A stretch of DNA of 62,170 bases, from IMG/VR virus record IMGVR_UViG_3300046557_000378. One strand, written 5' to 3'. Source of the stretch: a virus. This document shows, one piece after another, positions 3,011 through 62,170 of this stretch (position 1 is its first letter; every line of letters begins with the position of its first letter). The translations under genes were made by a program, and so were the position numbers. Under the pieces are notes generated by a model. The model did not search any database. It saw only the letters and a program-made list of their open reading frames with translations, and was not told where the DNA came from.

Positions 3011-3922
3011 ATGACCGCGCACATCTACCCCGGCGCTGACGCATCGACGCAGTGGTTCCACTCGAAGTACCCCGGCGACACCATGGCGCACCCCAACACG
3101 CTGGTGCTCCACACGACGGAGGGCGGCACCTTCCCCGACTACTCGGGCGGTTCCGTAGCCCCGACGTTCACCGTCCACCCGGACGGCAGGGTCCGTCAGC
3201 ACTTCTACGCCAACGAGTCCGCGCGAGCCCTCGTCAACGCGAGCGGTGGCGTGCAGACGAACACCCTGAACGCCGTGCAGATCGAGCTGATCGGTACGTG
3301 TGACAAGGGCGGTCCCGGAGTCATCTGGCCCAGTGCGACGGACGCTCAGCTCGCCGGGCTGGTCAAGCTCGTGAAGTGGCTGACGTCCACCTACCCGATA
3401 CCGCTGAAGTCGACGTCGAAGCCGTGGCTGAGTTACCCGACGTCGTACGGCTCGGCGAGCGGGCAGCGGATGAGCTTCGCGGAGTGGGAAGCCTTCAGCG
3501 GCATCTGCGGTCACCAGCACGTTCCCGAGAACTACCACGGCGACCCGGGTAACTTCCCGATCGCCCGGCTGATCAAGCTGGTTGGCGGGGCGACGTCGAC
3601 GCCCACCACGCCCACGAAGCCGACGACGAAGCCGACCGTCTCCGTCGCGCACCTGAACGCCGCGCGGGCGAAGGACATCCCCGCCGCGACCGGGCACACG
3701 ACCTACAAGGCCGAAGTCCTCGTATTTGAGAACGCCCTTGTGGCGGAGGGTCTGCTCAGCAAGTCCTACGCGGACGGATCCTTCGGCACGCTGACGCAGA
3801 CGGCCTACGACACGTTCCGGCGCAAGGTTCTGAAGCTGACCGGCTCCGACGCGACCGGCACCATCGGCCTGGCGTCGCTCAAGGCTCTGGCTGCGCGTCA
3901 CGGGTTCACGGCGAAGGCCTGA
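3011..3922 (+). CDS. endolysin: N-acetylmuramoyl-L-alanine amidase with C-terminal peptidoglycan-binding domain
   Basis: Amidase_2/PGRP-like N-terminus (TLVLHTTEG...HQHVPENYHGDPG), Thr/Pro linker, PG_binding_1-like end (YKAEVLVFENALVAEGLL...GSFG). Confidence 0.85.
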   Translation: MTAHIYPGADASTQWFHSKYPGDTMAHPNTLVLHTTEGGTFPDYSGGSVAPTFTVHPDGRVRQHFYANESARALVNASGGVQTNTLNAVQIELIGTCDKGGPGVIWPSATDAQLAGLVKLVKWLTSTYPIPLKSTSKPWLSYPTSYGSASGQRMSFAEWEAFSGICGHQHVPENYHGDPGNFPIARLIKLVGGATSTPTTPTKPTTKPTVSVAHLNAARAKDIPAATGHTTYKAEVLVFENALVAEGLLSKSYADGSFGTLTQTAYDTFRRKVLKLTGSDATGTIGLASLKALAARHGFTAKA

Positions 3923-4224
3923 TGAGTCCTGACGTCCTCGTTGCTGTGGTCACCGCCGCGTCAGTACTTGGCGCAGCGGTGATTGCGGCCGTCCCCGCAT
4001 TCCTCGCCCTCCACAGACGCACCACAGGTGCAGTCGCTCAGGAGGGGACGGCGACGAGAGAAGCCCTGGAGGGCATCGCGACCGCACTGAACACGCGCAT
4101 CGACGACGTCCGCGACGACATCGACGGCGTCCGGGAGGACGTCGCCCGCGTACGCGAGTGGCAGGCCGGCCACGACGCGGAGCACCTGCTGATCGACCGC
4201 CCACGCCCACGAGGAGACGCCTAA
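3922..4224 (+). CDS. membrane protein, holin-like/lysis-associated
   Basis: 100 aa; ATGA overlap with lysin stop; N-terminal TM VLVAVVTAASVLGAAVIAAVPAFLAL then charged helix. Confidence 0.5.
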   Translation: MSPDVLVAVVTAASVLGAAVIAAVPAFLALHRRTTGAVAQEGTATREALEGIATALNTRIDDVRDDIDGVREDVARVREWQAGHDAEHLLIDRPRPRGDA

Positions 4225-6590: not shown

Positions 6591-6605
6591 CGACTCCATC
6601 CCACT

Positions 6606-7615: not shown

Positions 7616-7628
7616 CGTTAAGAGCTTC

Positions 7629-7689
7629 GTAAGACGACTGACGGAGCTGCCTCATAGCGTGTTGTGGTGGTCGACATAATGCCTATACT
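7629..7689 (+). promoter_or_regulatory. early promoter/operator module 1 (palindrome variant + TTGTGG-N16-TATACT, GGTCGACATAA in spacer)
   Basis: GTAAGACGACTGAC 7629-7642; TTGTGG 7662-7667; TATACT 7684-7689, 6 nt before ATG 7696 (leaderless). Confidence 0.55.
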
Positions 7690-7695
7690 CCGGCC

Positions 7696-8322
7696 ATGCC
7701 GACCTCACCCGGCCCGCTACTGCAAGCGCTCGTCGACCTATGGGATCGACTACAAGCCGAAGTACCGGAGCTACCACGTATAACCCCTGTCGTCTCCCCG
7801 ACGACCAGGAGGAAAGACCACGGCCCCGAGAGGTGGAGGAGAGACGCCGACGGATCCGTATCGGGTCTCGTCATCACCGCTGACGTCCTGCATGAGGGCG
7901 CTGAAGCCACCCTCGTAATGGTCCTGCACGACGCTGCCCACATCCTCAACTGGACCCGCGACGTGCAAGACACAACGATGCGGGGCGTCTACCACAATCA
8001 GAGATTCCTGACGGCCGCGGAGGAAGTGGGCCTCGAATGGCCTGCCCACTCAGAGCGTGCTCCGGGACAGGGGTACGTCAACCCAGTGCTTAACGCGGTC
8101 GCCCACACACGGCACAAGCCTGATCTACAGAGGCTGACGGAGGTCATCCCGGAAATCCTCCCGCACCTGGAGGTTCCCGCGTCCTCCAGCGCCGGCCGCG
8201 TCGACCGGTTGACGTTGAAGTGCGGGTGCAAGCCAGCACGGTCCTTCCGCATCTCCAGAACGGTTGCTGCTCAAGGGCCGATCACGTGCAACGTGTGCGA
8301 CACCGAGTTCACCTCTGAATGA
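7696..8322 (+). CDS. hypothetical protein with HDAAH metallopeptidase-like motif and C-terminal Cys4 zinc-ribbon-like end
   Basis: 208 aa; VLHDAAHIL; LKCGC...ITCNVC; first gene after early promoter. Confidence 0.65.
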   Translation: MPTSPGPLLQALVDLWDRLQAEVPELPRITPVVSPTTRRKDHGPERWRRDADGSVSGLVITADVLHEGAEATLVMVLHDAAHILNWTRDVQDTTMRGVYHNQRFLTAAEEVGLEWPAHSERAPGQGYVNPVLNAVAHTRHKPDLQRLTEVIPEILPHLEVPASSSAGRVDRLTLKCGCKPARSFRISRTVAAQGPITCNVCDTEFTSE

Positions 8323-8412
8323 TCACCACGGCTACCGTGCGGTAAGGTCTGTCGAAAGTCAGTGATTGACGGTACTGTGCGTGCGGTAGCCGTGTGCCCT
8401 AGAGAGGTCAGG

Positions 8413-9180
8413 ATGAGCCGTAAGGACGTCGCCCGAGCGGGGCAAGGCATCGTGGCTGGCATCAAAGACGTCGCCCTGCCGGCGCTGGACCTCGACGAGA
8501 TCGAGAACGAGCCTGAAGGCGCGCTCATCGCGCGAGGTGCTGCCTACGCTCGTGAGTATGCGGCGATCGAGGACAAGCCGACGATCCTGGCAATGAACAT
8601 CGCCACCGTGCTACTCGCGATCAGGAAACAGCACGACGACTGGCTAGGCAGATCTCATGAGTACCGTCTGGTAGCAGCAGAGGTCTACGCACAGGCCAAC
8701 ATCCCGGATGACGCCAGAAAGCGACTTCAAGGCGCAGTCAGATACCACGTCGGAAACATGCTCCGTCGGTACCTGACCCCCCGTGAACTGAAGTCACTGG
8801 AGCTGCTGGACACGTCCCCGCTGGAGCGTCAGCAAGACAACCGAGCGACGAACTCAGTGCTCCTGTCTGCGATGCGGGTAAGCGCAGAGGTTGAGGCGTC
8901 AACTCCGAAGCGCGCCCCGGCGCCGGCGAAGGGGAAGGCGACGTCGAAGGAGACGGTCCCCGAACAAGGAGGGGGCGCAGGCCTCGTCGTCAAGGCGACT
9001 GCCGATCACCTCCGCCTGGCACACGCCGCATCCAACATCCTCGGGCAGCTCAACGCCAGCGTCATCGACGAGCACATGACCGACGGACAGCGCGCCAAAC
9101 TTGACGAGGAGCTAGCGGAGGTCGAACGCGTGACCCGTCGGCTACGTCGGATGCTGAAAAGGGCCGGTTCAGAGGCCTGA
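8413..9180 (+). CDS. hypothetical protein
   Basis: ATG 8413 in frame within track ORF 8362-9180, preceded by GAGAGG; helical, Lys/Ala/Pro-rich linker. Confidence 0.6.
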   Translation: MSRKDVARAGQGIVAGIKDVALPALDLDEIENEPEGALIARGAAYAREYAAIEDKPTILAMNIATVLLAIRKQHDDWLGRSHEYRLVAAEVYAQANIPDDARKRLQGAVRYHVGNMLRRYLTPRELKSLELLDTSPLERQQDNRATNSVLLSAMRVSAEVEASTPKRAPAPAKGKATSKETVPEQGGGAGLVVKATADHLRLAHAASNILGQLNASVIDEHMTDGQRAKLDEELAEVERVTRRLRRMLKRAGSEA

Positions 9181-9230
9181 TCCGGCCTCTACGTCGCCCC
9201 GCATCCTCGTCCCCGGCTGACACAAACTGC

Positions 9231-9299
9231 CAAACTAACCCCTTATTTCTAACTCTCTCTAACGCGTTATAGAGAGAAGTGAAAAGAAGGGTTAGTTTG
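9231..9299. repeat. 69-bp AT-rich imperfect palindrome, copy 1 (homologous to 41022-41090)
   Basis: CAAACTAACCCC...ACGCGT...GGGTTAGTTTG read directly; followed by ACGTTTTGG. Confidence 0.9.
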
Positions 9300-9385
9300 A
9301 CGTTTTGGCGCCGGACTGGCCACGGGGGAGGACGAGGTTCGTTGACGGCCTGCCGGGCATGGGGTGGACTCGCCATACTCGGCAG

Positions 9386-10129
9386 ATGGACACTCAAGAC
9401 CGGCAGGACGACGATCGGTGGCACCGGACGGCGCTTGTGGCCACTGTGGTTGCTGTGGTTGGTACCTGCCTCGCGGGGTTGAGTGCTGTTCTCGGGCCTA
9501 GTTACGATCCAGCGTGGTGGCAATTGGTGGTTCTCATCATTCTGCTCTCCGCTGTGGTGCTTGGGCTCATTGCCCTCACGTTCGTAATTGCCAGGCGCCG
9601 AGAGTTCCATCCCAGGGGGCTCACTTGGCTTCTGCTGCTTGGGATGCTGGTCCTCGTCGTGTGGCTTACCTGGTACAGCCTTCGGCACGTATTGGAGGCG
9701 TACCAAGCGCATGCCTCGCTGAGTCCGGATGACGCACCAGCCATCCTCGGGGCACTGTCCGGTAGCGTCGCCATGGCAACGGCTGTCAGCGTCATCGTTG
9801 TACGCCTTATGCGCGGGTTCGGCGCGATGAGGAAGGACAGCGGGAGCGGGACGGAGTCGGCCAGTAAGGGACGAGCCGAGATCATCAGGGCGGAGGCAGA
9901 GGCAGAGGCGATGTTGATCACGGCGAACGCTGAGGCTGAAGCCACGCGTATTCGGGCCCGAGTGGAGTTGCGTCGTGCGGAAACTGACACTATTCGTGCG
10001 GATCTTTATCGCATGTCTTATGAGTCTTTGAACGGTAGCCAACCCGTTCAAGGTCAGGGACCGAGTGCGACCGGGGATTCTGGCCCTGCGGTTGGTCTAC
10101 CTGGCACCGATCAGTCAGAAACAGTCTGA
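9386..10129 (+). CDS. polytopic membrane protein with C-terminal Glu/Ala-rich coiled segment
   Basis: ATG 9386 in frame in track ORF 9305-10129; about 5 hydrophobic helices; AEIIRAEAEAEAMLITANAEAEATRIRA tail. Confidence 0.65.
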   Translation: MDTQDRQDDDRWHRTALVATVVAVVGTCLAGLSAVLGPSYDPAWWQLVVLIILLSAVVLGLIALTFVIARRREFHPRGLTWLLLLGMLVLVVWLTWYSLRHVLEAYQAHASLSPDDAPAILGALSGSVAMATAVSVIVVRLMRGFGAMRKDSGSGTESASKGRAEIIRAEAEAEAMLITANAEAEATRIRARVELRRAETDTIRADLYRMSYESLNGSQPVQGQGPSATGDSGPAVGLPGTDQSETV

Positions 10130-10132
10130 AGT

Positions 10133-10166
10133 CCCGCGTCACATCTGCCCCCGCTTCCCCCATAAC
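10133..10166 (+). promoter_or_regulatory. phage-specific promoter-like motif, copy 2
   Basis: CCCGCGTCACA-N11-TTCCCCCATAAC; 39 nt before ATG 10205. Confidence 0.5.
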
Positions 10167-10204: not shown

Positions 10205-11008
10205 ATGGCCGGAGTGAGCACGATCAAGCGTGGCGGCAGCCGCTTCTACATCGACCCGGACGACGGAGCGATCAAGGTTCCGGGCGTGACCAGCGTGGGC
10301 GGCATGCTGCCGAAGGACTTCCTGACGTTCTGGGCAGCGAAGGAGGCCGCGGATGCGGCCGTCAACAACTGGGACATCGTCTCGGAGCTGATCAAGCGCG
10401 ACCCGAAGGGCGCCGTCGACTACCTGAAAAATGCGCACCGACGGAAGACGACGGCCGCAAGTGACTTGGGGTCCACAGCGCACGACCTCTTCGAGCGCCT
10501 GGCGCGCGGGGAGACCATCAACCCGCGGCACGTGCACGTCGACGTGAAGCCCCACGTCAGGTGGTTCTCGGAGTTCCTCCAGGAGGTGCAGCCGGAGTTC
10601 CTGTACCTCGAAGAGACGGTCTGGAGCGACACCAACCACTACGCCGGCAGCTTCGACGCCATCGCGGTTGTCGACGGGGAGACGGTCGTCCTCGACTGGA
10701 AGACGTCGAAGGCCGTGTACGACTCGGTGGCGCTCCAGTTGAGTGCCTACCGCTACGCGGACCGCATCATCCTCTCGTCCGACGGATCCTCAGTTCCGAT
10801 GCCGCAGATGGCCGGCGGAGCCGTCCTCCACGTCCGCCCGGAGGGCTGGCAGTTCGTCCCCGTCAAGTGCGACGAGGAGATCTACGAGACGTTCCTCCAC
10901 CTGCGCGGAGTCTTCGACTGGGAGAGCGGCGGCAAGCGTGGCGTCGTCGGCCGGCCGATCGCATCCGGCGGCGAGCTGGTGACGGGGACGCAGAGGCGGG
11001 CAGCGTGA
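10205..11008 (+). CDS. RecB/Cas4-family PD-(D/E)XK exonuclease
   Basis: 267 aa; SFDAIAVVDGETVVLDWKTSK (D...DxK) and QLSAYRYA (QxxxY) motifs. Confidence 0.8.
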   Translation: MAGVSTIKRGGSRFYIDPDDGAIKVPGVTSVGGMLPKDFLTFWAAKEAADAAVNNWDIVSELIKRDPKGAVDYLKNAHRRKTTAASDLGSTAHDLFERLARGETINPRHVHVDVKPHVRWFSEFLQEVQPEFLYLEETVWSDTNHYAGSFDAIAVVDGETVVLDWKTSKAVYDSVALQLSAYRYADRIILSSDGSSVPMPQMAGGAVLHVRPEGWQFVPVKCDEEIYETFLHLRGVFDWESGGKRGVVGRPIASGGELVTGTQRRAA

Positions 11009-12188: not shown

Positions 12189-12827
12189 ATGACAGAGTTC
12201 GCCCCTGAGTTCCACGAGTGGCCCAAGACGAAGCGGCTCTTCAGGCCCATCACGGTGTCGGAGAAGCTCGACGGCTCGAACAGTGGCGTCGGGATCACCA
12301 AACTCGACTGGACGGACGACATCACCGCTCCGCCCGTGGACTTCAAGGTCGTGACTGTCGGCGCCGACGCGTACGCCGTTCACGCGCAGTCGAAGAACCG
12401 GATCATCTATCCCGGGAAGACCAGCGACAACTACGGCTTCGCCGGCTGGGTCTACGACAACGCCGCGGAACTCGTCGACGTCTTCGGCCCCGGACTGCAC
12501 TACGGCGAGTGGTGGGGGAGGGGGATCCAGCGAGGCTACGGCGTCGACGGTAAGCGGTTCTCGCTCTTCAACACGGCGCGGCACTTTGAGAACCCGGGGG
12601 CGGAGATCGGCGGTGTTCCGGTCGGTCCCGTTCCGGTGCTGTACGAGGGCATCTTCGACGAGTCCGCCATCACGGGCGCCCTGATGGACCTCCGGACGTA
12701 CGGTTCCGTCGCGGCCTCCGGCTTCGACAACCCGGAAGGCATCTGCGTCTACCACACACAGACCCGCAACGTCTTCAAGGTCACGCTTGACAACAACGAC
12801 GCCGGCAAGTGGGAGGCGGCTGCGTGA
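12189..12827 (+). CDS. ATP-dependent RNA ligase-like nucleotidyltransferase (minimal, adenylyltransferase domain only)
   Basis: Motif I SEKLDGSN, motif III-like YGEWWG, motif IV EGICVY, motif V FKVTL; ATG 12189 after GGAGGAGAG. Confidence 0.7.
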   Translation: MTEFAPEFHEWPKTKRLFRPITVSEKLDGSNSGVGITKLDWTDDITAPPVDFKVVTVGADAYAVHAQSKNRIIYPGKTSDNYGFAGWVYDNAAELVDVFGPGLHYGEWWGRGIQRGYGVDGKRFSLFNTARHFENPGAEIGGVPVGPVPVLYEGIFDESAITGALMDLRTYGSVAASGFDNPEGICVYHTQTRNVFKVTLDNNDAGKWEAAA

Positions 12828-21528: not shown

Positions 21529-21719
21529 GCCGCATCAACATCCATCAGACAACGACTGGTGACAGCCGACTGGAGATCAACCTCCCCGCGCTCCAGCGAG
21601 GCGAGGAGACGCACTCGTTCACCGACGGCGAGGAACTGGGAGCAGCGTCGACGATCATCGACATGGTGTCTGCGCTCGACAACGGCGAGGCCCTCGTCAT
21701 CACGCGCGAGATCTTTTAG
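21525..21719 (+). CDS. hypothetical protein
   Basis: 64 aa; ATGA coupling. Confidence 0.5.
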   Translation: MSRINIHQTTTGDSRLEINLPALQRGEETHSFTDGEELGAASTIIDMVSALDNGEALVITREIF

Positions 21720-21836
21720 GGGGCGTCGTGGGGCAACAACTTCTGATCGCCGCAACGCTCATCCCGTCCGGCGTCGCCCTGGCGGCCCTCGTCTTCCTCT
21801 GGGCCTACGCGACGATCCACAGAGAGGAGATCAACA

Positions 21837-23024: not shown

Positions 23025-25538
23025 TTGCGACTGACGGAGATTCTGGGGCGGCTCGAAGGAGTTGAGGAGGATCATGACGGCTATCTCGCGCTCTGCCCCG
23101 CGCACCGGGACCGGAACCACCCGTCGCTGAAGCTGACACTGAAGGAGGGCGGAAAGCTTCTGCTCGTCTGCCGTACGGGATGCGTGCAGTCTGACGTACT
23201 GCTGAAGATGGATCTCCGTCCGTCCGACCTCTTCGACGTCGACGGCGAGGGCGTGAAGACCGTCAGCGCGAGGGCTCCGGAGACGATCGGCCCTGGAGAG
23301 ATCGCGGGACTTCGAGTCGCCGTTGACCAGTGGGTGAGCGCGCTTCAGCACCAGGGAATGGGGGCAGGGTTCGCCGATGCCGCGCGGCAGTACGCCGCGG
23401 ACCGGTTCGGCCTGTCTGCGGAGCAGTGTGCCGAACTCCTCGTCGGCCTCTCCACCCCCGCAGAGCAGTCGTGGCCGTGGCTCTCACGTGGCTTCACACG
23501 GTACCCCCGCCTAACCGTCCCGTTGGTTGGCTTCGACGGTGTGGTCCGCGGCCTACAGGGGCGCGACCTGTCGGGGAAGTGTCCGGCCCGTTGGGTCTCC
23601 CTGACCAATGTGGAGGGGCGGACGTGGGCGAAGTACGGCGTCCTCTCCGCAGGCGCCGGCTATGACACGATCCTTGTGACCGAAGGTCCCGGCGACGGAC
23701 TGACCTCCGTCGGTGTCGGCTACGACGCGCTCGTCATCCGTGGCGCCGGGCTCGCCCGTAACGCCGCCCTCGTCGCGGAACTGGTTACTCACCTACGAGG
23801 CCGTGACGTCGTCCTGGCCTTCGACCCTGACGACGCTGGCGCGCGAGGTATTGGCGCCCTGGCGACGGCGCTTGTGGAGGACGGGAACCACCCTCGTCAG
23901 CTCCCGTTCCCCAACGCGGGGGAGGATCTGACGGACTGGCGTACGCGGGACCCGGAGGCGTTTCCCGCGGACCTGCACCGCGCTGTCCGTGCGGCGTCGG
24001 TGGTTGATCTGGAGGTCGGTAAGCCCGCAGCTTCCGCGTCAACTTCCGCTCCGTCGACGGAGGTTGACGTCCCTGACACGGACACCGCACTTCAGGGCAT
24101 GAGCGCTTCCTCGCGCGAGATGTTCGATCTGACGGACGTCGGCCTTGCCGTGCGCCTGCGCGACTATATGCGGAGCCAGGGCGGGGGAGTGCGCTACGCG
24201 CGAGGGCTCGGGTTCCTCGTATGGGACGGAACGATCTGGACGCAGACGACGGACGCTGTACGCGAGGCGCTGCACCGCATGGGCGCAGAGATGATCGCGG
24301 ACGGCAGCGACTTCGAGCGGAAGCTTGCGTTGAAGGCTCTGACCAACCGGCACATCGACGGCATCTTGAAGGAGCTTCCGTCGGTGCCCGGAGTTCCCGC
24401 CCGCGCTGACGCGTTCGACGCCTGTCCGGAGCTGCTCACAGTGGCCAACGGAACGGTGAACCTGCGCACAGGGCAGATTCACCCGCACACCCCTGCGGAC
24501 ATGATCACGAAGCGTCTCGACGTCGCGTACGACTCCACAGCGGAGGCGACGAGGTGGGAGAAGTTCCTTGAGGAGATCTTCCCCAACCACCCCGAGCTGC
24601 CCTCGTACATGCGGCGGTTGGTCGGCTACGGAGTCACCGGATCGACGGCTGAACAGTGCTTCGCCTTCCTCCACGGCCAGGGCGCGAACGGGAAGTCGGT
24701 GTTCCTGGACGCCCTACTCCACGTGTTCAAGGGCGTCACGAAGTCGACGGAGTTCTCCACCTTCGAGCAGCGCGTGAACGTCGGGCAGGCGAGCCCCGAA
24801 CTGGCGTCGCTCCGTGGCGCTCGACTGGTCACAGCGTCGGAGACGGAGAAGTACAGCCGCCTCGCGGAGGCACTGGTCAAGCAGCTAACAGGCGGGGATC
24901 CGGTGACATGCCGGTTCCTCAATCAGAACCCGTTCACCTACGTCCCGCGGTTCCTATTGATGGTGGCCGGCAACTACAAGCCCGCCATCCTGTCGCAGGA
25001 TCTCGGGGTCTGGCGACGGGTCAAGCTCGTTCCCTTCGAGGCCACCTTCCGCGGCGCGAAGGCGGATACCTCACTGCCCGCGACCCTGCGGGACGAGGCG
25101 GAGGGCATTCTCGCGTGGGCCGTGCGCGGCGCGCAGGAGTGGTACGAGCACGGACTCCAGGAGCCCGGCTCCGTCGCCACGGCCACGCAGGACTACCGCG
25201 AATCGGAAGACCGTCTCGCGGAGTTCATCACCGCGCGCCTCGTCCAGGAGCCCGCCGTCCGCGTCGCCCCCATGGCGGTCCGGCGTGCCTACGCCGAGTG
25301 GGCGGAGGACGCAGGCCTGAGCCGCAAGGAGGTGCTCTCCGGATGGGCTCTTGGCGTCGAACTGGAGTCGCGAGGCTTCACGAAGGACAAGCGCCGGAGC
25401 AAGTGGGGTTTCAACGGGATCCGCCTCATGACCGACGAGGAGGCACAGACCGCGCGGGCAGCGGAGACAGAGGCACCCACTGACGAGCCTGACCCGTCGG
25501 CAGACATCTTCGGACAGCAGCGAGAGGAGGCAGCGTGA
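23025..25538 (+). CDS. DNA primase/helicase (zinc-binding N-terminus, Toprim, D5/P4-type SF3 NTPase)
   Basis: 837 aa; CPAHRD...CRTGC; ILVTEGPGDG...AFDPDDAG; Walker A GQGANGKS; TTG start after GAGGGGAGAG. Confidence 0.85.
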   Translation: MRLTEILGRLEGVEEDHDGYLALCPAHRDRNHPSLKLTLKEGGKLLLVCRTGCVQSDVLLKMDLRPSDLFDVDGEGVKTVSARAPETIGPGEIAGLRVAVDQWVSALQHQGMGAGFADAARQYAADRFGLSAEQCAELLVGLSTPAEQSWPWLSRGFTRYPRLTVPLVGFDGVVRGLQGRDLSGKCPARWVSLTNVEGRTWAKYGVLSAGAGYDTILVTEGPGDGLTSVGVGYDALVIRGAGLARNAALVAELVTHLRGRDVVLAFDPDDAGARGIGALATALVEDGNHPRQLPFPNAGEDLTDWRTRDPEAFPADLHRAVRAASVVDLEVGKPAASASTSAPSTEVDVPDTDTALQGMSASSREMFDLTDVGLAVRLRDYMRSQGGGVRYARGLGFLVWDGTIWTQTTDAVREALHRMGAEMIADGSDFERKLALKALTNRHIDGILKELPSVPGVPARADAFDACPELLTVANGTVNLRTGQIHPHTPADMITKRLDVAYDSTAEATRWEKFLEEIFPNHPELPSYMRRLVGYGVTGSTAEQCFAFLHGQGANGKSVFLDALLHVFKGVTKSTEFSTFEQRVNVGQASPELASLRGARLVTASETEKYSRLAEALVKQLTGGDPVTCRFLNQNPFTYVPRFLLMVAGNYKPAILSQDLGVWRRVKLVPFEATFRGAKADTSLPATLRDEAEGILAWAVRGAQEWYEHGLQEPGSVATATQDYRESEDRLAEFITARLVQEPAVRVAPMAVRRAYAEWAEDAGLSRKEVLSGWALGVELESRGFTKDKRRSKWGFNGIRLMTDEEAQTARAAETEAPTDEPDPSADIFGQQREEAA

Positions 25539-28838: not shown

Positions 28839-29630
28839 ATGAACCGCATCGAGGTCACGGACGAGCAGATCCTTGCCGCACAGACGGGCGACGGTGACGC
28901 CATGTGGGACATCGTCCAGTCGTTCGACCCCATGCTGAAGAGCATCATCCGCAGCGCCGCCCCGAGCGCCAGCGCGGAGGACGCGGAGGATCACCTCCAA
29001 GAGGGACGCGCGGTATTGATCCAGCACATTCGCGACTACGACTCGTCGTCCTCGTCGGCTCAACTCTCCTCCTACGTCTACCGTGCTGTGCGCCGCGCCA
29101 TCGCGGAGGCGGACGTCGTGTCGAAGACTCCACTCACCATTGACGCAACGGCGGCGCTCCGTGTGCGCTGGGCGCTGTGGGAGTGCGGGGGAGACACCGA
29201 GCGGGCGTGGGCGACGTTCCGTGACGCGACGTCGCCGACGAAACGGATGAGCCGGGAACTGTTCATCGCGATGGTGGAGGCACTCGCCGGTACGGAGAGT
29301 CTGGACAGTCCGTTCGCGGGATCGCTTACCAGGCGTGCGGGCGCGATGGAGCGGGACAACGGCCTGACGCTCGCCGACGTCCTGGAAGACCGGGCGACGT
29401 CGGTCACCGACCCCCTGGAGCGCCGCGACCTCGCACGCTGGCTCATGACGCAGATCCCGCAACGTCAGTCACTCGCACTCCGCGCTTTCTACGGCGTCGG
29501 CATGACTCGCATGACCGACCCGGAACTGTGCGCGGACCTGGAGGTCAACGGCGTCGCCCTCCGACGGCTCCGCTCCCGCGGAGTGGCCTCCGCCCGCACC
29601 GTGGCCGACGCTCACGACCTTGCTGCGTAA
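28839..29630 (+). CDS. sigma-70-family RNA polymerase sigma factor (group-3-like)
   Basis: 263 aa; region-2-like DAMWDIVQSFDPMLKSII...EDHLQEGRAVLIQHIRDYD...SYVYRAVRRAI; region-4-like IPQRQSLALRAFYGVGMTRMTDPELCADLEVNGVALRRLRSRG. Confidence 0.7.
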   Translation: MNRIEVTDEQILAAQTGDGDAMWDIVQSFDPMLKSIIRSAAPSASAEDAEDHLQEGRAVLIQHIRDYDSSSSSAQLSSYVYRAVRRAIAEADVVSKTPLTIDATAALRVRWALWECGGDTERAWATFRDATSPTKRMSRELFIAMVEALAGTESLDSPFAGSLTRRAGAMERDNGLTLADVLEDRATSVTDPLERRDLARWLMTQIPQRQSLALRAFYGVGMTRMTDPELCADLEVNGVALRRLRSRGVASARTVADAHDLAA

Positions 29631-33363: not shown

Positions 33364-33397
33364 GGAGCCCCTGTCAATTTCCGGCGACAGGGGCTCC
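33364..33397 (+). terminator. 12-bp stem-loop (no T-run)
   Basis: GGAGCCCCTGTC-10 nt-GACAGGGGCTCC. Confidence 0.5.
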
Positions 33398-33441
33398 ACA
33401 GCACCCCCAACTCACACACCACGCACACGAACTGAGGAGCC

Positions 33442-38807: not shown

Positions 38808-39200
38808 GCCCGCTCGCTGGCTGCCTGTGCAGTTGGCGCGCGGCGGGCGCAGCGGGGGTCTGGGGTAGCTGATGTGAGGTCGGCCGACGCCCCAACCCCC
38901 GCCAGCGTCCGAACTCCTCGTCTCCGGCGTGCCCATCACACACGGCCGCGGACGAGGTGCCGACGTGGTTGGTTTCGCACCTTCCTGGCCACGTCGGAGC
39001 TGGGATCCCGCTCGTCCGTCTGCCGTGACTTGGGCGAGCGGGGTTCCCAGCGCCAGAACTTCCCGTCCCGAGCGATCGGAGGCGGGGCACCGCCCGTCGG
39101 TGGAGTCCCTGTCGCCAGGGACTGCCCGGGGCGGTACAGGAGCCCCACTCGTGCGACGTCCCCCGCGTTGCGTGAGTGGGGCTTCTTCATGATGCTGACA

Positions 39201-39248
39201 TACGCAGGTTCTTCTAGTACGACAACCCGTACACGGGATACCTGCGTA
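39201..39248. other. candidate attP (48-bp imperfect inverted repeat)
   Basis: TACGCAGGT...ACCTGCGTA perfect 9-bp outer arms, inner GTACG/CGTAC symmetry, centre AA; ends 15 nt before int ATG. Confidence 0.45.
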
Positions 39249-39263
39249 GGTATACTCGGACTC

Positions 39264-40826
39264 ATGACAACCCGCGTACTGGGCGCCAGGCGGCTGAGCC
39301 GCGTCAAGGACAACTCGACATCGTTCGAGCGGCAAGGCATAGCCATCGAGACGGTAGCCGCGTCTGTTGGGGGAGAAGTCGTCGCGTGGGCGGACGACCC
39401 TGACGTCAGTGCCGCGAAGGTGGCACCTAAGGACCGTCCGGAACTTGGCCCCTGGTTCGAGCGCCCCGACGAGTTCGACGCTATCGCATGGTGGAGGCTC
39501 GACAGGGCCGTTCGAAGCATGCGGGATATGGCATGGCTTGCAGGGTGGGCGCGCGATAAGAAAAAGCGTTTGATCTTCGCTGAAGGACCCGGCGGGGGAC
39601 GCCTTGAACTCGATATGTCGTCCCCCATGTCAGAGCTGATTCTGATGATTCTGGCCTTCGCCGCTCAGATGGAAGTCCAGGCAATTCAGGAGCGCACGGA
39701 AGGATCTACTGAATACCTCCGCAGCGTCGGCCGATGGAAAGGCGGACGGGTGCCTTTCGGGCGCATGCCGATCCCACATCCGGAGGAAGGCGAAGGATGG
39801 TGGCTGGGACGTCACGACAAAACAGCGAGCATCGTTGACGACATGGTGAAGCTCGTGATCGACGGAACGTCGTACAACGCACTCGCCGCGTGGCTAAACA
39901 GCAAACACCCTGGCGTCACGCCTTCCAATCACCGCCGTTCCCTGGCCACTCCGCCGAAAGAGCCGGACCCCAACGTCCGTTGGAATCCAGGGATGGTGAG
40001 TTCGTTCCTCCGTCAACCGTCGTTGAGGGGGTGGTCGATGATCGGCGACGATCCCGTGCGTGACGAGGAGGGTGAGCCCGTCAGGCTGGGTCCGCCTCTG
40101 ATCGACGATGAGACATGGAGGAGGCTCCAGGCGGAAATGGACACCAGGGAAGGAAACGGGGGCCGCAACAAGAGCGACACGCACCCGCTCCTGGGCGTTG
40201 CCTACTGCGGATCATGCGAAGGCAAGCTGTACCAAGGGTGGATCTCTGCCGGGGAGCGTCGCACAGCCAAGCGGCAGTACCGATGCGCAGCGAAGGCGCA
40301 CGGGCGCATATGCCGTAAGCCCGCGTACGTCACGGCGGATCCGGTGGACGAGTGTGTCGAAGAGGCCTTCCTCGATCAGTTCGGCCGCTTCGAGTTGATC
40401 GAGGTCATCGTCATCCCCGGTGTGGACCGCCGCGACGAGATCAAGGAGTTGGAGGCGGACGTCGAGACCCTCGCCGGGCAACTGGCCAACCTCCGCGGCG
40501 CTGCTGCGGACGCCGTCGGCCGGCAGATACAGGGGCGGTCCGACAAGCTTGCGCGTCTCCAGGAACAACCTGTCATTCCCGCGCGAACGGAGGAGGTGCG
40601 TACAGGCGTGACCTACGGCGACGCATGGCGCCGGGCAAAGGCCGACAGGGACTTGCATGCGTGCCGGAAGATGCTCCGCGATGTCGGGCTCCGTGTGACC
40701 GTTGGAGAGACGTACCGGGGCGCCCGTGACGTTCGCGCAAGGCTCAGTGTGGATGTGGTGACGCCGGATGACGTTGATCTCGCCCAGGATGCCCTTGACG
40801 ACGTGGCGGAGCAGGAGCGCCATTAG
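39264..40826 (+). CDS. int: large serine recombinase (integrase)
   Basis: 520 aa from ATG 39264; N-terminal RLSRVKDNSTSFERQ catalytic-Ser motif, Bxb1-like order; TATACT 39251-39256 suggests a leaderless mRNA; the 130 upstream in-frame codons are Arg-rich and non-coding-like. Confidence 0.85.
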   Translation: MTTRVLGARRLSRVKDNSTSFERQGIAIETVAASVGGEVVAWADDPDVSAAKVAPKDRPELGPWFERPDEFDAIAWWRLDRAVRSMRDMAWLAGWARDKKKRLIFAEGPGGGRLELDMSSPMSELILMILAFAAQMEVQAIQERTEGSTEYLRSVGRWKGGRVPFGRMPIPHPEEGEGWWLGRHDKTASIVDDMVKLVIDGTSYNALAAWLNSKHPGVTPSNHRRSLATPPKEPDPNVRWNPGMVSSFLRQPSLRGWSMIGDDPVRDEEGEPVRLGPPLIDDETWRRLQAEMDTREGNGGRNKSDTHPLLGVAYCGSCEGKLYQGWISAGERRTAKRQYRCAAKAHGRICRKPAYVTADPVDECVEEAFLDQFGRFELIEVIVIPGVDRRDEIKELEADVETLAGQLANLRGAAADAVGRQIQGRSDKLARLQEQPVIPARTEEVRTGVTYGDAWRRAKADRDLHACRKMLRDVGLRVTVGETYRGARDVRARLSVDVVTPDDVDLAQDALDDVAEQERH

Positions 40827-40923: not shown

Positions 40924-40977
40924 TCATCCACAGGCGTCTGTGGATAACTGCAAAGCGTTACCGGTTTCTGTGGATTC
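40924..40977. other. cluster of three DnaA-box-like 9-mers
   Basis: TCATCCACA (40924-40932, +), TGTGGATAA = TTATCCACA (40939-40947, -), TGTGGATTC (40969-40977, -). Confidence 0.35.
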
Positions 40978-41021
40978 GCAACACTGCGTAGTCACGTGAC
41001 CCGTCGAACGGTCCAAAACGT

Positions 41022-41090
41022 CAAACTAACCCCCTACTTCTAACTCTTCTAATACGCGTTAGAGAGAAGTAGAAAAAGGGGGTTAGTTTG
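41022..41090. repeat. 69-bp AT-rich imperfect palindrome, copy 2
   Basis: About 85% identical to 9231-9299; preceded by CCAAAACGT (reverse complement of the copy 1 3' flank). Confidence 0.9.
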
Positions 41091-41127
41091 CCACTCTGTC
41101 GCACCCCCGCCGGAGGGTGCTACCAAG

Positions 41128-41157
41128 ATCACTACCGCGTCACACTTCCCCCATAAC
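41128..41157 (+). promoter_or_regulatory. phage-specific promoter-like motif, copy 5 (spacer 10 bp shorter)
   Basis: CCGCGTCACA-c-TTCCCCCATAAC; an alternative -35-like ATCACT lies 18 nt upstream of CATAAC. Confidence 0.4.
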
Positions 41158-41355
41158 AGTAGTAGGAGGGGAGGACGTGCGGCCGTCGCGAATGGCGGAC
41201 GGTCCGCTCCCCTCCCTGACGGCCGGCGCCGCTCCTGCGCTCCCCGTACTCTCTCCTCCGGGTTGAGCGCGGTTGAGCGGCCCCGGCTGTCCCAAGACTT
41301 CCTTGCCCGGTGCATGGGACTTCGACCCGCTCGAAGCCCGGAACGGGGGAGGGTA

Positions 41356-41467
41356 GATCACGTAGTGCAGCGGCCAAGCACACCCGAGGGAGTAGGGATC
41401 GAGTCCCGCCGTCTGACGGCAAGTGGTCGCCCCTGGCGTATCGCCGGTTCGAATCCGGTCGTGATCA
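41356..41467 (+). ncRNA. tRNA-like element (acceptor, D and T arms; 60-nt non-canonical core)
   Basis: GATCACG-TA-GTGC-AGCGGCCAA-GCAC ... GCCGG-TTCGAAT-CCGGT-CGTGATC-A. Confidence 0.4.
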
Positions 41468-41646
41468 CTCGCTGTGTGGAGGGTTCGAAAGCGAGCGCGG
41501 ATTGTGAGAGCGCGTGATGCCACGCAGTGGTCATGGTTCCGGGTAAGTCCCCGGCACGCGACGACCAACACCCGGACCTTGTGGGTCCGTGGCGAGTCCA
41601 CTTGCGCCCCGTACGGCGGGGAGGCGGCATACGGACTCACAACCCA

Positions 41647-41671
41647 CCCCGTCCCTTGTGGGCGGGGTTTT
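41647..41671 (+). terminator. intrinsic terminator
   Basis: CCCCGTCCC-ttgt-GGGCGGGG then TTTT. Confidence 0.75.
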
Positions 41672-41745
41672 CGACGTCACCGGAGCCGGACGCGAAGCGG
41701 TGACGCGGTCAGGACTTCGCGCCACTGGCCGCACGGTGACGTCAA

Positions 41746-41819
41746 GCCTCCGTAGCTCAGTTGGCTAGAGCGCTGCTCTCGTAAAGCAGAGGTCGCGCGT
41801 TCGACTCGCGCCGGGGGCT
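41746..41819 (+). tRNA. tRNA-Thr (anticodon CGT)
   Basis: Hand-folded cloverleaf: acceptor GCCTCCG/CGGGGGC, D arm GCTC-AGTTGGCTA-GAGC, anticodon arm CTGCT-CTCGTAA-AGCAG, T arm GCGCG-TTCGACT-CGCGC. Confidence 0.85.
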
Positions 41820-41823
41820 CTCA

Positions 41824-41901
41824 CGGGACGTGGCCAAGTTGGTTCAGGGCGCCCGCTTTGGGAGCGGGAGGGCGAAGGTTCGAGTCGCACCATCCCGACC
41901 A
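41824..41901 (+). tRNA. tRNA-Pro (anticodon TGG) with encoded CCA and aberrant T stem
   Basis: C1-G72, A73, anticodon arm CCCGC-TTTGGGA-GCGGG; T stem GAAGG/CGCAC pairs only at its two ends. Confidence 0.6.
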
Positions 41902-55624: not shown

Positions 55625-58600
55625 TGGCTGGCGACCTTGACATTGTCGGTGGGGCAGCGGTCGACGTTGTCCCCATCGTCCCCAATTTCCACACGAAGCT
55701 GAAGGCCATCGTCCTCCCCATCGCTGACAGGGTCGGCGAAGAGGCGGGACAGAAGATGGGCGAGGCGATATCGAAGCACATCGTCATCGCCATCCCGGAC
55801 GGAATCACCGACGGCGGAAAGATCGGTGTCCGTCTCGCCGGCAAGCAGGGCGACGACGCGGGCGGGGCGTTCGCGCGCTCCATCCGCCGGAAGCTCGAAG
55901 CGGCGTTCAAGGCCATGCCCAAGCTCGACGTCAAGCTTGGCGACACTGGCGTTGACGCTGAACTCGCGCGCATCCGGGCGAAGTTGGAGCAGCTCTCCAA
56001 CAAGCGCGTCGGCATCGACGTCAGCGCAGAGGACGCAGAGGCGGAGATAACCCGCCTAGAGGCCAAGCTTCAGGAACTTGGAGCGCAGCACCCGAACGTG
56101 GCGGTCCGCGCGGATACAGCAGCCGCTCGCGCTGCTCTCGCGGAGATCCGTGCGGAGATCGCTGCCGTCGGTGGACGGCGAACCGTGACCCTGGAGGTCG
56201 ACGGAGCTTTCGGCGCCAAGCTGCGTGCGGTCGTGGCGGAGGCTCAGGCTTCCATCCCGGACATCAACGTCGACGCAGACACGTCGCCCGCGCGCGCTGA
56301 GGTTCAGGAACTCCGGGCACGCCTGGCCGCGCTGGCTGACGTCCGTGTCGGGATCGACATTGACGCCGGCACGGCACTGGCAGAGATCCAGGCTATTCAG
56401 GAGCGGCTAGAGCTCCTCTCCATTCAGCGTCACGACATCGACGTTCGAGTTGATGCCGCTCGCGCGGCGGCTCAACTTGCGGCCCTGGATGCCGAAGTCG
56501 ACTCGGTCAAGATCCTGAACATCAAGGCACTGGCAGACACTTCGGGGGCCTCGTCGGCCCTCATGGGTCTCGGCGTGCAGATGGCCATCCTGACGGCCAT
56601 TCCGCTGGGCCCCGTGCTCGCGGCGGGAATTGGCGCCATCGCCTCCGCTGCCGTTGCCGCCGGCGCCGGAGTCGGTGTCCTGGCACTGGCTGCGGTACCC
56701 GCCATCAAGGGCGTCACAGAGGCCATCACAGCGAAGTCGGCCGCGGACAAGGAAGCTTCCTCCGCGTCGGACAACTCCGTCGCTGCGGGCAACAGAGCAG
56801 CGCAGAGTGCCCTTCAGACGGTCGGCGCCCAACAGGCCCTGACGTCAGCGCACCGCAACGCCGCGCGGTCGATCGCGCAGGCCAGCGAGCAGATAGAGAA
56901 CGCGGAACGGTCCGTCGCGCAAGCCTCGCAGCGTGCCGCGGAACAGCGTCGGCAGGCTGTCGATAGCGTCGTCCAGGCGGAGCGCTCCCTCGCGGACGCT
57001 CAGCGACAGGAACAGCAAGCACAAACGGACCTGACGCAGGCGCGGAAGGACGCTGCACAGCAACTCGCCGACCTGAACGACAAGTTGACGGACGGCAAGC
57101 TCTCCGAGCGGGACGCCACCCTCCGTGTGACGGAGGCGGAAGAGCAGCTCAATCAGACGCGGCTCGCGTTCGACGCCGGCAAGGCATCAGACACCGACCT
57201 CGCTCGCGCTCAGCTCTCCTACGACCAGGCTGTTCAGGCGCAGAAGGAGCAGTCGAAGAACTACACGCAGCTCCAAGCCGACGCAAAGGCCGCAGAGAAG
57301 GCAGGCGTCAACGGCAACGCCAACGTCAAGACGGCCGCACAGCAGCTCGCCGACGCTCAGCAGAACGTCAAGGACCAGGTAACGGCCCTCGCAAAGGCTC
57401 AGCGAGACGCAGCTCAAGCGGAAATCGACGCGGCACAGTCGGTCGCCGATGCTCAGCGGAACCTTGCTGACGCAGTCCAGAACGCGGCAAACACGCAGGT
57501 CGACGCGGCGGATTCGATCGCGTCCGCCGAGCGTGGTGTCGAGTCGGCTCGACTGTCGAGCAGCAACGCAACCGGAACCGCGACGACGAAGGCCGACGAG
57601 TACAAAAGGGCCCTAGCCAAGCTGACGCCCGCGCAACGTGACCTCTACGACTCGATCGCCGGCCCCAAGGGGCTGACGAAGGCGTTAAAGGACTGGAGCA
57701 AGGAACTTCAGCCTGACGTTCTGCTGCTCTTCACGAGGGGCGTTGACGGGGCGAAGAACTCTCTGCCCGGACTGACGCCGCTCGTCAAGACCACGGCGGA
57801 TGCGGTGGGCATCCTCTTCGACAAGGCGTCTAAGGCGCTGAGGTCGCCGTTCTGGACGGGCTTCAAGGACGACATCAACAAGAACGCAAAGCCCGCGATC
57901 GTCGGACTAGGAATTTCGTTCGGCAACATCATCACGGGCATGGCCGGAATCGTTGACGCCTTCCTTCCGCACATGGACGGCATCTCGAAGACGATGCAGC
58001 GGATCACGAAGCGATTCGCCGACTGGGGGAAGAACCTCAAGGGTTCGCCGTCATTCGAGAAGTTCCTGCAGTATGTCAAGGACAACTCTCCGGGGCTGGC
58101 AGAATTCCTAGGCGATCTGCTGTCTACGATTGTCGACGTAGCCCAGGCGCTGGCTCCGCTGAGCCAGACAGCCATGGACGTGGTTAAGCCGATGTTGGAC
58201 GGCATTTCGTGGCTCGCGAACCATGCGCCGTGGACAATCCAGCTTCTGTGGGGGCTGTACACGGTATTCAAGGCGATCACGCTTATGCAAGCGGGTTTCG
58301 CAGCGGCAATGCTGATTTATGACATCGCCGTAGCCGGCGCCACGCTAGTTACAAGCGGGTGGGCTGCAGCGATCCAGGCGACAGGCATTGTCCCTCTGAT
58401 TGAGGCAATCGTCCTGGTCATTGCGTTGCTCGTCATCGGCATCATCTGGGCGTACAAGAACGTCGGTTGGTTCCGAACCATAGTTGACACCTCCTGGCAC
58501 TTCATCCGCGACGTCACGGTCTGGCTCTGGGAAAAGGCGCTGAAGCCTGTATTCCAGGGGATGTGGACGCTGATCAAGCTGGTCGGCGACATCTCTGTCT

Positions 58601-60835: not shown

Positions 60836-62170
60836 GTGGCCATCACTGGCAACCTTCTGTCGGCCAACGCGGAGAGCATCGAAACGGATGCCTCCGCGTG
60901 GTCGGCGCTGGTCAACGCGGCGACCCTCACGCAGGGCTCAGGGGGCACGCTCGGTACCCATTGCCTGTCGTTCAAGTCCGTTGCGGCGGGGGACTGCCAA
61001 GTCGGTCTTGCCGCTCGGGTCGCAGTGACGCCAGGTGTCGAGCACTGGAGTTGCGCCTCGATCTTCCCGCCGGCGAGTGGCGCCACGGCGTGGCTTGAGA
61101 TCCGCTGGTACACATCCGGCGGGACGCTGATCAGTACGACGACGGGGCCGACGATCGCCGCCCCGGCCGCAACCTGGTTCCAGATAGCGGCAGTTGGAAC
61201 CGCCCCTGCCACGGCGGCAACTGCGCTAGTCGTTTTGCGCGTCACGGCAACGGCCGCTACTCAAAGCTGGTTCGCCGACAGGATCTTCCTGGGGCAGACG
61301 ATCCGGTCGACGGGCAACCTGTTGCCGTGGAGCACGGAGACGATCGAAGTCGACCGCTCCGGATGGGCTGCGGACACGAACTGCACGCTCGGCATCTCCA
61401 CGACGTCGTACACGTGGTATCAGTCGATGATCCTCACGTCGTCCGCGGCCGGCGCATGCCTAGCGCGGAATGCGGTGGCGGACGCTCCAGCAGTGACGCC
61501 AGGCGTCGAGTACGCAGCACAGGTTCAGGTGTCACCCGGAGTCAGCGCGCTGTCCTTCGCGATTCAGATCCGGTGGAGGGACGCGTCAGGGACGGAGATC
61601 GGAACCTCCTCCGCAGCCTTCACGCCGGCGAGCGGCCAATGGACGCGGTGCACAGTCGCTGCGACCGCCCCGGTCGGTGCCGTGACTGCACGCGTTGCAC
61701 TGGCACCCACGGCAACAGCCGCAGGGCAACAGTGGGTCCTCGACCGCATGCTCCTCGCGCCGACGAGCGCGCTCATGACGTCCGGGAACCTACTTCCCTA
61801 CAACACGAGCGACATCGAACAGGACTCGACCGGTTGGACGGTGACCGGCGGGACGGCCACGCAGACGACGGAGCAAGTCCTAGGCGGTGCCTACGCCTTG
61901 CGAATCGCCGCTACTGGCGGCGACGTCGTGGCAACGATCACCGTACCTGTTGGCGGCGTGCAAGAGGATCTCGGCTATCAGTTCGCTCCCTGCGTCTACA
62001 AGCCCGTCACTCGCGTCTACCAAACGCGCATCGAGTGGTTGAACTCCGCAGGCGATGCGGTGCGGACGAGGTGGCAGTCCTGGACCGGCGCCGTGGGTGG
62101 GTGGGCCGTCGCACGCATGGGCGACCTGGCCCCCGAGGGGGCCGTCTCCGCTCGCCTGAGCCTGCTAGTC
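60836..62170 (+). CDS. minor tail protein, N-terminal part with three tandem ~150-aa carbohydrate-binding-module-like repeats (continues at nt 51-911)
   Basis: No stop to window end; repeats each begin GNLL(S/P)xN...E.D..GW; full product is 731 aa after removing the overlap. Confidence 0.85.
   Translation, partial: MAITGNLLSANAESIETDASAWSALVNAATLTQGSGGTLGTHCLSFKSVAAGDCQVGLAARVAVTPGVEHWSCASIFPPASGATAWLEIRWYTSGGTLISTTTGPTIAAPAATWFQIAAVGTAPATAATALVVLRVTATAATQSWFADRIFLGQTIRSTGNLLPWSTETIEVDRSGWAADTNCTLGISTTSYTWYQSMILTSSAAGACLARNAVADAPAVTPGVEYAAQVQVSPGVSALSFAIQIRWRDASGTEIGTSSAAFTPASGQWTRCTVAATAPVGAVTARVALAPTATAAGQQWVLDRMLLAPTSALMTSGNLLPYNTSDIEQDSTGWTVTGGTATQTTEQVLGGAYALRIAATGGDVVATITVPVGGVQEDLGYQFAPCVYKPVTRVYQTRIEWLNSAGDAVRTRWQSWTGAVGGWAVARMGDLAPEGAVSARLSLLV
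62121..62170. repeat. terminal direct repeat (identical to 1-50)
   Basis: Read directly. Confidence 0.95.

Follow-up and report, generated by a model that had tools for sequence, protein, structure and literature searches.

Two long AT-rich palindromes at the ends of the repressor and integrase transcription units of a Samy-like Streptomyces phage, tentatively read as bidirectional terminators

In phage lambda, the terminator t_imm ends the cI-rex immunity transcript, and tI/sib lies past int. The CIR operators of phiC31 and the stoperators of mycobacteriophages are palindromic, intergenic sites that are repeated in temperate actinophages and can stop transcription; CIR-like sites are 17–24 bp long, number about 8–18 per genome and differ between heteroimmune phages. 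Here we describe two homologous palindromes in a 62,170-nucleotide stretch of viral DNA (IMG/VR record IMGVR_UViG_3300046557_000378, referred to as the window), one following an immunity-repressor-like gene (R) and the other following the gene of a large serine integrase (I). Like CIR and stoperator sites they are palindromic, intergenic and repeated, but they are 90 bp long, occur twice per genome and are common to phages whose CIR-like sites differ. They are tentatively read as bidirectional intrinsic terminators or insulators at the boundaries between lysogeny and lytic genes, for which t_imm and tI/sib would be the functional analogues of R and I, respectively. We regard this as possible rather than probable.

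The window is a circular assembly, since bases 1–50 are identical to 62121–62170 (an exact 50-bp terminal direct repeat), giving a genome of 62,120 bp with nearly all genes on the + strand. The sole GenBank phage with nucleotide similarity to it is Samy, a prophage of Streptomyces ambofaciens (about 70%), which has both palindrome copies at the same two sites. The window phage is a Samy-like temperate phage of Streptomyces. On the closed circle the two copies are separated by arcs of 31.8 and 30.3 kb, in agreement with the 31.7 and 30.3 kb given in an earlier reading made from the letters of the window (the sequence-only reading).

That reading located the two elements at 9231–9299 and 41022–41090, and both sequences are found exactly there. 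It also described them as about 85% identical, imperfectly palindromic and AT-rich, all of which holds: 61 of 72 aligned positions agree between the 69-nt cores (84.7%), about 80% of each core is self-complementary, and no 70-nt window of the genome is richer in A+T than that of R (63%), with that of I (60%) in second place, compared to a genome mean of 34.7%. The two elements themselves have 62% and 59% A+T. The length of 69 nt applies only to the cores, because the full dyad is about 90 bp, with outer arms of the form CCAAA-n4-5 / n4-5-TTTGG that are seen in relatives. The R palindrome occupies 9221–9309 (core 9231–9299), with a degenerate outer arm at 9221–9230, the arm ACGTTTTGG at 9300–9308, and ACGCGT at its centre. 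The I palindrome occupies 41012–41099 (core 41022–41090), with the arm CCAAAACGT at 41013–41021 and a degenerate arm at 41091–41099. Neither is assigned to a strand. Each window copy therefore has one good outer arm and one degenerate side, and ACGTTTTGG and CCAAAACGT, formerly described as flanks, are outer arms of the same dyad. The two copies had also been described as inverted relative to each other. Because the cores align better direct (84.7%) than inverted (81.7%), this description derives from the outer arms, with which the inverted alignment becomes the better one (0.84 against 0.80). Among the 10 genomes that have both copies, the best pairing of R with I is direct in seven and inverted in three.

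The arms are built of tandem 8-mers (GCCAAAnn, twice), many members of the family have a conserved internal asymmetric loop (TTTCTAAC opposite TTTTCAC-T), and the loop or centre ACGCG(T) is nearly invariant across the family. For the terminal pattern AACTAACCC-N30-55-GGGTTAGTT there are two matches in the window and none in 100 shuffles of it, and an nhmmer profile of the whole family, run on the window, finds only these two copies (R, E=1e-22; I, E=2e-24).

The R palindrome stands at the end of an operon. Its first gene encodes a SprT-like metalloprotease (7696..8322, + strand; phrog_6361 match; 63% identical to Samy SAMYPH_31), and this is followed by the immunity-repressor-like gene (8362..9180, + strand; 63% identical to Samy SAMYPH_32, annotated as 'putative immunity repressor'), whose stop codon is about 40 nt before the palindrome. 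The first early gene past R encodes an exonuclease (10205..11008, + strand; phrog_298, E 2e-54), and upstream of it is the promoter-like motif of the first early operon (CCCGCGTCACAT-N17-CATAAC; 10133..10166, + strand), which is found upstream of exo in relatives too. In other R loci the distance from the palindrome to exo is 107–130 nt. The window differs in having a 0.8-kb insertion downstream of R, the only one among about 31 R loci compared. It consists of an open reading frame (ORF) for a membrane-protein moron (9360..10129, + strand; weak DUF7937 and acyltransferase-3 matches), placed between the palindrome and the exonuclease promoter, and judged from its sequence it is a candidate lysogenic-conversion or superinfection-exclusion moron.

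The I palindrome follows the large serine integrase ORF (38874..40826, + strand; Resolvase, Recombinase and Zn_ribbon_recom domains; phrog_95 match), the stop of which is 186 nt before the palindrome and the true start of which is probably later than 38874. Past I is a promoter-like cassette (41125..41157, + strand) consisting of AAGATC, CCGCGTCACAC and CATAAC. It is kept in 17 of 24 distinct I loci, and its counterpart in phiC31 is annotated as a 'late lytic' promoter. The late arc then begins with tRNA-Thr and tRNA-Pro (41746..41901, + strand; ARAGORN and Rfam) and goes on to the packaging and virion genes. When Rfam covariance models were run against the whole window, the gathering score was reached by these two tRNAs only, and not by the palindromes. 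A separate small conserved hairpin, CCACAGGCGTCTGTGG then ATAACTGC, lies between int and I, about 70–95 nt upstream of the I palindrome (40928–40952 in the window, about 3918–3942 in Samy, locus L002).

The distribution of the element was determined by pattern scans. IMG/VR gave 23 true copies, and 185,579 species genomes (one per species) gave 31 true copies on about 25 contigs, all from Streptomyces and with one or two copies per contig; 13 non-Streptomyces matches and one Streptomyces match that do not have the inner features of the family were discarded. Among 50,697 phage records, the element occurs in Samy only. In total there are about 55 copies of this type, which has CTAAC arms. Analysis with tblastn and Pfam places them in two contexts only, namely sprT, rep, palindrome, exonuclease (R) and serine integrase, palindrome (I), and the I context holds even where the integrases are 23–46% identical or recognisable by Pfam domains only. 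It is concluded that the element is prophage-bound and has two fixed sites.

Because the scan patterns themselves fixed the sequence of the arm blocks, the loci were re-sampled by means of exonuclease homologues, independently of the palindrome. Where the exonuclease is at least 60% identical, every locus carries the element 107–130 nt upstream of exo, with one apparent exception, in which exo is split by a homing-endonuclease gene. In locus L114 (998–1504; IMG/VR 2912640942_000002) a 168-aa Cys-rich endonuclease-like ORF lies past the first ~12 exo codons and has the look of a homing-endonuclease insertion. A further observation concerns locus L070 (60–1874; Streptomyces sp. NPDC006284), in which an ORF consists of an EF-Tu-type GTP-binding N-terminus fused to a serine integrase. 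As far as the sequence tells, this prophage has probably integrated into a GTPase gene, and host transcription could there reach int and the I palindrome.

Folded as RNA, the R palindrome has an energy of -32.9 kcal/mol on the + strand and -40.1 on the - strand (z -6.2 and -7.2), and the I palindrome has -35.6 and -41.1 kcal/mol; the z-scores of the window palindromes range from -6.1 to -7.2. In both window copies the antisense strand gives the more stable fold. About 50 members of the family have fold energies of -33 to -68 kcal/mol, with z from -5.5 to -11. The hairpin has a C4-5/G4-5 clamp, followed by UUAGUUUG (5 U in 8) and then by a second UUUU run.

There is evidence that the two arms change together. 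In the exonuclease-sampled set, the conserved block does vary, in several elements in both arms at once (CTAGAC/GTCTAG, GATGGAC/GTCCATC, CCTGAC/GTCAG). At 20 basal and outer positions, 78.7% pair, compared to 67.7 +/- 2.2% when right arms are swapped between elements, and none of 2000 shuffles was as high, although the shuffle is not phylogeny-aware. An alignment of 49 pattern-selected copies with MAFFT and RNAalifold gave the basal stem only, which is invariant because the search pattern required it. A scan for the I copies of the phages with the CTAGAC allele returned their R copies and chance matches only.

A strand bias was found at R. When 29 distinct R copies are oriented by their genes, the sense hairpin is the stabler in 19 and the weaker in 9, with a mean difference of 2.7 kcal/mol (Wilcoxon p=0.011, uncorrected for relatedness). 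The R folds contain 77 G·U pairs in the sense strand and 46 in the antisense strand, and at the basal and outer positions there are 48 sense-strand G·U cells and 17 A·C cells. Changes to the conserved block that affect one arm only are found, among R loci, in the 5' arm in five or six elements and in the U-rich 3' arm in one.

Expression data are available for Samy, a related phage and not the window phage, in the form of gene-level counts from non-induced lysogens (S1 Data of PMC11302927). SAMYPH_31 (sprT) is expressed constitutively in Samy lysogens, and SAMYPH_32, the putative immunity repressor, is highly expressed in all lysogen conditions (PMC11302927). In sample MP24a there are 3716 reads for sprT, 3353 for rep, 10 for a minus-strand ORF over the R palindrome and 26 for the exonuclease (PMC11302927). 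This is a drop of about 130-fold per base across Samy R, over a 250-nt gap in which the palindrome is the only strong hairpin. Around Samy I, the same sample has 2494 reads for int, 316 for SAMYPH_95, which directly follows I, 0–7 for the tRNAs and 1 for the HNH gene, which lies further along (PMC11302927). Only two + strand units of Samy are both constitutive in lysogens and succeeded by lytic genes, namely sprT-rep and int (S3 Table and S1 Data, PMC11302927), and the ends of these two units are exactly the sites that bear the palindromes. The possibility that the palindrome contains sigma-70-like promoters (TAGAGA...TAGTTT) was considered and rejected: the hexamers are poor, and no transcription leaves Samy R in either direction.

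SAMYPH_95 (OR263580, 58,879–59,121) is the Samy counterpart of window positions 41160–41745, between the post-I promoter motif and the tRNAs. This region looks non-coding, is 76% identical to Samy over 290 nt and starts with a GGAGGGGAGGACG...CGCTCCCCTCC hairpin; in Samy lysogens it is transcribed at least as strongly as int. Instead of the hypothetical protein that is annotated, the region could represent a leader or a small RNA.

Taken as terminators, the palindromes would act as follows. R would end the transcript of the sprT-repressor operon and I that of the integrase, and since each lies immediately before a co-directional lytic promoter, constitutive lysogeny transcripts would be kept out of the lytic genes. 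The sense RNA would form a hairpin of about 40 bp with an A-rich 5' arm (CAAACUAA), the C4-5/G4-5 clamp, an AU-rich inner stem and an ACGCGU loop. With the U-rich 3' arm that would come after it (UUAGUUUG-nnnn-UUUUGG), the hairpin would be built like a factor-independent terminator that works in both directions, and the mRNA ahead of it would probably have its 3' end protected as well. RNA 3' ends would presumably lie inside the element, and copy I would presumably terminate as well.

The palindromes resemble bidirectional intrinsic terminators in their G/C-rich hairpin base, in the A-rich 5' and U-rich 3' tracts, in their location where the immunity operon and int end, and in the steep RNA drop across the R copy of the Samy lysogen. 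The element also stays with the upstream gene, both in the window, where the moron has been inserted past R, and in the 7 of 24 distinct I loci where the palindrome is kept after int and the promoter cassette is gone, which supports the terminator reading. The sequence-only reading had listed bidirectional termination among five options. It is the best supported of the five, through position, hairpin with clamp and U-rich arm, arm covariation, strand bias at R, and the RNA drop in Samy, while termination at I is unproven.

A number of observations weigh against termination. Unlike intrinsic terminators, which have 5–14 GC-rich pairs, the palindromes have an AU-rich stem of about 40 bp with conserved interior loops, an interrupted U-tract (UUAGUUUG), a conserved loop, and homologous copies that evolve in concert. 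Ordinary GC-rich hairpins are present elsewhere in the phage, which leaves the long AU-rich stem unexplained. A terminator needs neither the nearly invariant ACGCG(T) loop, nor the repeated 8-mers of the arms, nor the near-identity of R and I within a genome. Scans for consensus terminators and promoters around both copies made no calls; the terminator rule needs an uninterrupted stem beside the T-run, and the interior loops in the stems are probably the reason why neither copy was called. Over the whole arms, complementarity is 0.80 for an element's own arms and 0.78 between elements, a small excess that comes mainly from the 20 basal and outer positions, so that much of the symmetry is conserved half-site sequence. 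The I copies have no sense G·U excess (38 against 32), and the relatives with GTGAC-type elements, described below, have no strand bias. Finally, there is no fall in RNA density across Samy I: SAMYPH_95 has 316 reads over 243 nt and int 2494 over 1533 nt, and the ratio of their densities is 0.7–2.8 over seven samples, with SAMYPH_95 above int in five of the seven. Termination at I would require a lysogen-active promoter between the palindrome and SAMYPH_95; the alternative is that I is not a terminator. It is because of the conserved loop, the half-site conservation, the 8-mers, the concerted evolution, the phiC31 counterpart and the RNA after I that the terminator reading is given less than an even chance.

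The concerted evolution is clear from the 10 genomes with both copies. The identity of R and I within a genome has a mean of 0.93, compared to 0.83 for R with R and 0.82 for I with I between genomes. In two genomes the copies are identical, and in 6 of the 10 the closest relative of R is its own I. From these comparisons, R and I appear to exchange sequence, in either orientation and without crossing over. We infer that gene conversion, and not recognition by a common protein, keeps the copies of one genome nearly identical. The duplication extends beyond the palindrome, and at both R and I comprises the palindrome, CAGTCTGnCC, AAGATC(TT), CGCGTCACA and CATAAC. The spacing from the palindrome to the exo promoter is fixed in 30 of 31 R loci, the window with its moron being the exception.

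Counterparts with other sequences are found in more distant phages. Where the exonuclease is 48–58% identical, a different dyad occurs in the same place, directly past the rep-like ORF and 95–136 nt before exo. It is 95–110 nt long, with outer arms AGTGACGAAGTGAC...GTCACTTCGTCACC and inner sequences CCTATT(C/T)C...GGAATAG, and in one variant it has perfect A7...T7 flanks. The retention of a long dyad in this position counts in favour of termination. Phage phiC31 (AJ006589) has an unannotated pair of 120-nt repeats at 21649–21768 and 40428–40547, which are 76% identical, have the form of nested dyads, and align with the dyads upstream of the exonuclease in these intermediate relatives. One is after c/gp54, upstream of gene 1, and the other is after int; each abuts a phage promoter motif, and the I copy is 18 nt upstream of the mapped late promoter, annotated as 'late lytic' in X91149. 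All the Lomovskayaviruses found have two such places per genome, unannotated.

The phiC31 pair is like the window pair in its two positions, in having two copies per genome, and in being a long nested dyad with an AT-rich centre. It is unlike it in having no similarity detectable with nhmmer, in its arms of GTGAC repeats and in its weaker hairpins (z -2.5 to -3.5). The phiC31-type elements also have no U-tract and are preceded by separate GC-rich hairpins, which again does not favour termination. Their GTGAC motif occurs in 4–6 copies and is conserved across very distant phages, and in locus L142 all its copies have changed together to ATGAC/GTCAT. In terms of sequence pattern this looks like protein recognition, a further point on the side opposed to termination.

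The palindromes and the phiC31-type dyads could together be a previously undescribed class of paired dyads, which a conserved phage protein would read at the two 'entry' promoters of phiC31-like temperate phages. They would either couple the first early and late operons, as a master switch or roadblock, or serve the P4-alpha-like primase-helicase as a dual replication element, and the lineage-specific CTAAC or GTGAC arms would co-evolve with the protein. We consider this quite conceivable but doubtful.

A related suggestion is that the palindromes are protein-bound regulatory dyads in double-stranded DNA (operator, roadblock or upstream activator site), through which the first early promoter and the late/tRNA promoter would be co-controlled. 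The protein, conserved and encoded by phage or host, would bind both arms. Several features favour this: the palindrome belongs to a longer cassette that is present at R as well as at I and that at R almost always has a fixed distance to the promoter; its symmetry is mostly half-site conservation, with a near-invariant ACGCG centre and tandem 8-mers in the arms; and the concerted evolution of R and I would be expected if one protein recognised both. The GTGAC repeats of the phiC31-type elements, with their joint change in L142, are consistent with it, as is the fact that neither of the two dyad-preceded promoters in phiC31 has a CIR nearby. A bound protein acting as a roadblock could also explain the RNA drop at R. 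On the other hand, the element is common to phages that have repressors 31–68% identical and differing CIR-like operators, and there is no candidate for the binding protein. Four basal-arm alleles, each with a matching partner arm, are found among close relatives, which fits base pairing better, and a site that acts as double-stranded DNA would not be expected to have more G·U pairs in the sense strand, as the R copies do. The tolerance of 0.8 kb between palindrome and promoter in the window, and the seven I loci that have no promoter, are also difficult to reconcile with joint control. A protein-bound dyad is therefore considered rather unlikely, although it is a serious competitor of the terminator reading.

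In particular, the palindromes were rejected as immunity operators of the CIR or stoperator type, given that they are common to phages with such diverged repressors (31–68% identical) and different CIR-like repeats. The window has its own CIR-like family, GCTCCGTCAGTCGACTGACGGAGC, a palindrome of 20–24 bp in about 8–10 copies, often directly upstream of promoter-like motifs. The 28-nt copies are at 12819, 16691, 22924, 28680, 29817, 30330, 52578 and 54847, and related copies are at 7621 and 33031. This family is likely to be the counterpart of the CIR repressor operators of phiC31. The CIR or CIR-like sequences are CCGTCAGTCGACTGACGG in the window, GCGTAAAACGACTCACGC in Samy and CCTACTCACGTGAGTAGG in phiC31, and the operator core of the window is shared by none of 87 related loci.

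Distant pairs of homologous cis sites are also known from replication, the precedents being ori and crr of P4 and oriL and oriR of SPP1. The palindromes resemble these in being two distant, homologous, non-coding repeats with an AT-rich stretch in a phage that encodes a P4-alpha-type primase-helicase (23025–25538; Toprim, D5_N and DUF5906 / SF3-helicase domains in a P4-alpha-like architecture; 44% identical to phiC31 gp9a over the whole length). They could be an origin or auxiliary site, the arm repeats binding this protein and the AT-rich centre serving as the unwinding element. They are the two most AT-rich spots in a genome of 65% G+C, have short repeats in their arms and evolve in concert. 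The per-base cumulative G-C curve is lowest, genome-wide, in the middle of the R palindrome (9263) and highest at 43,866, 2.8 kb beyond I. However, the skew was rejected as a marker of origin and terminus: the minimum at R largely follows from the make-up of the palindrome itself, with C abundant in its left arm and G in its right; the maximum is off I; and the curve of phiC31 is monotonic. Unlike the P4 and SPP1 sites, the palindromes follow the ends of transcription units and not the replication genes; there is no swap of the primase C-terminal domain between phages with different arm types, and the strand bias and RNA drop are left unexplained. A search for iterons in the polymerase-sigma intergenic region found none convincing. 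We consider a replication element improbable.

It is also quite improbable that the palindromes are primarily RNase III processing or mRNA-stability hairpins that set the half-life of the repressor and integrase mRNAs, in the manner of T7 RNase III sites or lambda sib. The double-stranded RNA stem, about 40 bp long and in many members interrupted by a conserved asymmetric loop, the sequence conservation of both arms, as in the T7 sites, the placement of both copies where the rep and int mRNAs end, and the sense bias at R are all compatible with this. Lambda-style differential retroregulation cannot operate, given that attP is upstream of int, and such a function overlaps the terminator reading rather than excluding it.

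Least probable, and largely refuted, is a recombination or inversion site for the 31.7-kb segment, or a miniature inverted-repeat (MITE)-like mobile insertion, both of which the sequence-only reading had offered: despite the homology of the palindromes, the serine recombinase gene beside I and the exchange of sequence in either orientation, rep and int are co-oriented as in the window in 10 out of 10 genomes with both copies, with no isomer, attP is elsewhere, and the palindrome is conserved among phages whose integrases differ strongly. The MITE option fails on the species-genome scan, which found only the prophage R and I contexts, 1–2 copies per contig and Streptomyces alone, and there are no target-site duplications, because the flanks belong to the palindrome. 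The attP of Samy lies upstream of int, and an int-attP vector (56,510–58,494) that does not contain the palindrome integrates in six hosts (PMC12924846), so that the palindrome was also rejected as a substrate of the integrase. A protelomerase target, suggested by a central ACGCGCGT resembling N15 telO, was rejected as well: there are two internal copies, and the Samy annotation has no protelomerase.

Other repeats were noted in the window. Promoter-like repeats fall into two families, both common to Samy: CCCGCGTCACAT-N17-CCCCCATAAC (at 6605, 10132, 16722, 28771 and 41133) and GTTGTGGTGGTCGACATAAC-TGTGCCATAGT (at 7649, 30982 and 33059). Since the phage encodes a sigma-70 region-2 protein (28839–29630), one of the classes may depend on a phage sigma factor. 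A GC-rich hairpin, GCCCCTGTCA-ATTTCCGG-TGACAGGGGC, is found at 33367–33399 and 39100–39132 in opposite orientations, and in Samy (L088) at 24319, 25984 and 26847. By its sequence it looks like an 'I-shaped' terminator that has no U-tract and is conserved between phages.

The palindrome pair is unannotated in Samy, phiC31 and the other records examined, and the Samy papers (PMC11302927, PMC12924846) make no mention of a palindrome, hairpin or stem-loop. A literature search with the arm sequences returned unrelated primers only. The element was not found in the searchable literature, and neither was an account of how the first early and late promoters of phiC31-type phages are insulated or controlled. 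If the palindromes are a pair of terminators, they are a known kind of element with an unusual build. They would then explain how constitutive repressor and integrase genes can stand head-to-tail with lytic operons, and, if strong and bidirectional, they would be ready-made insulator parts for synthetic biology in high-GC Streptomyces. If they are bound by a protein, they would mark a further layer of the lysis-lysogeny circuit, or the replication origin. The serine integrase in widest use comes from phages of the phiC31 type, and a conserved pair of long dyads is now defined at their first early and late promoters, which may be of interest to actinophage specialists and would provide a testable handle on phiC31 regulation.

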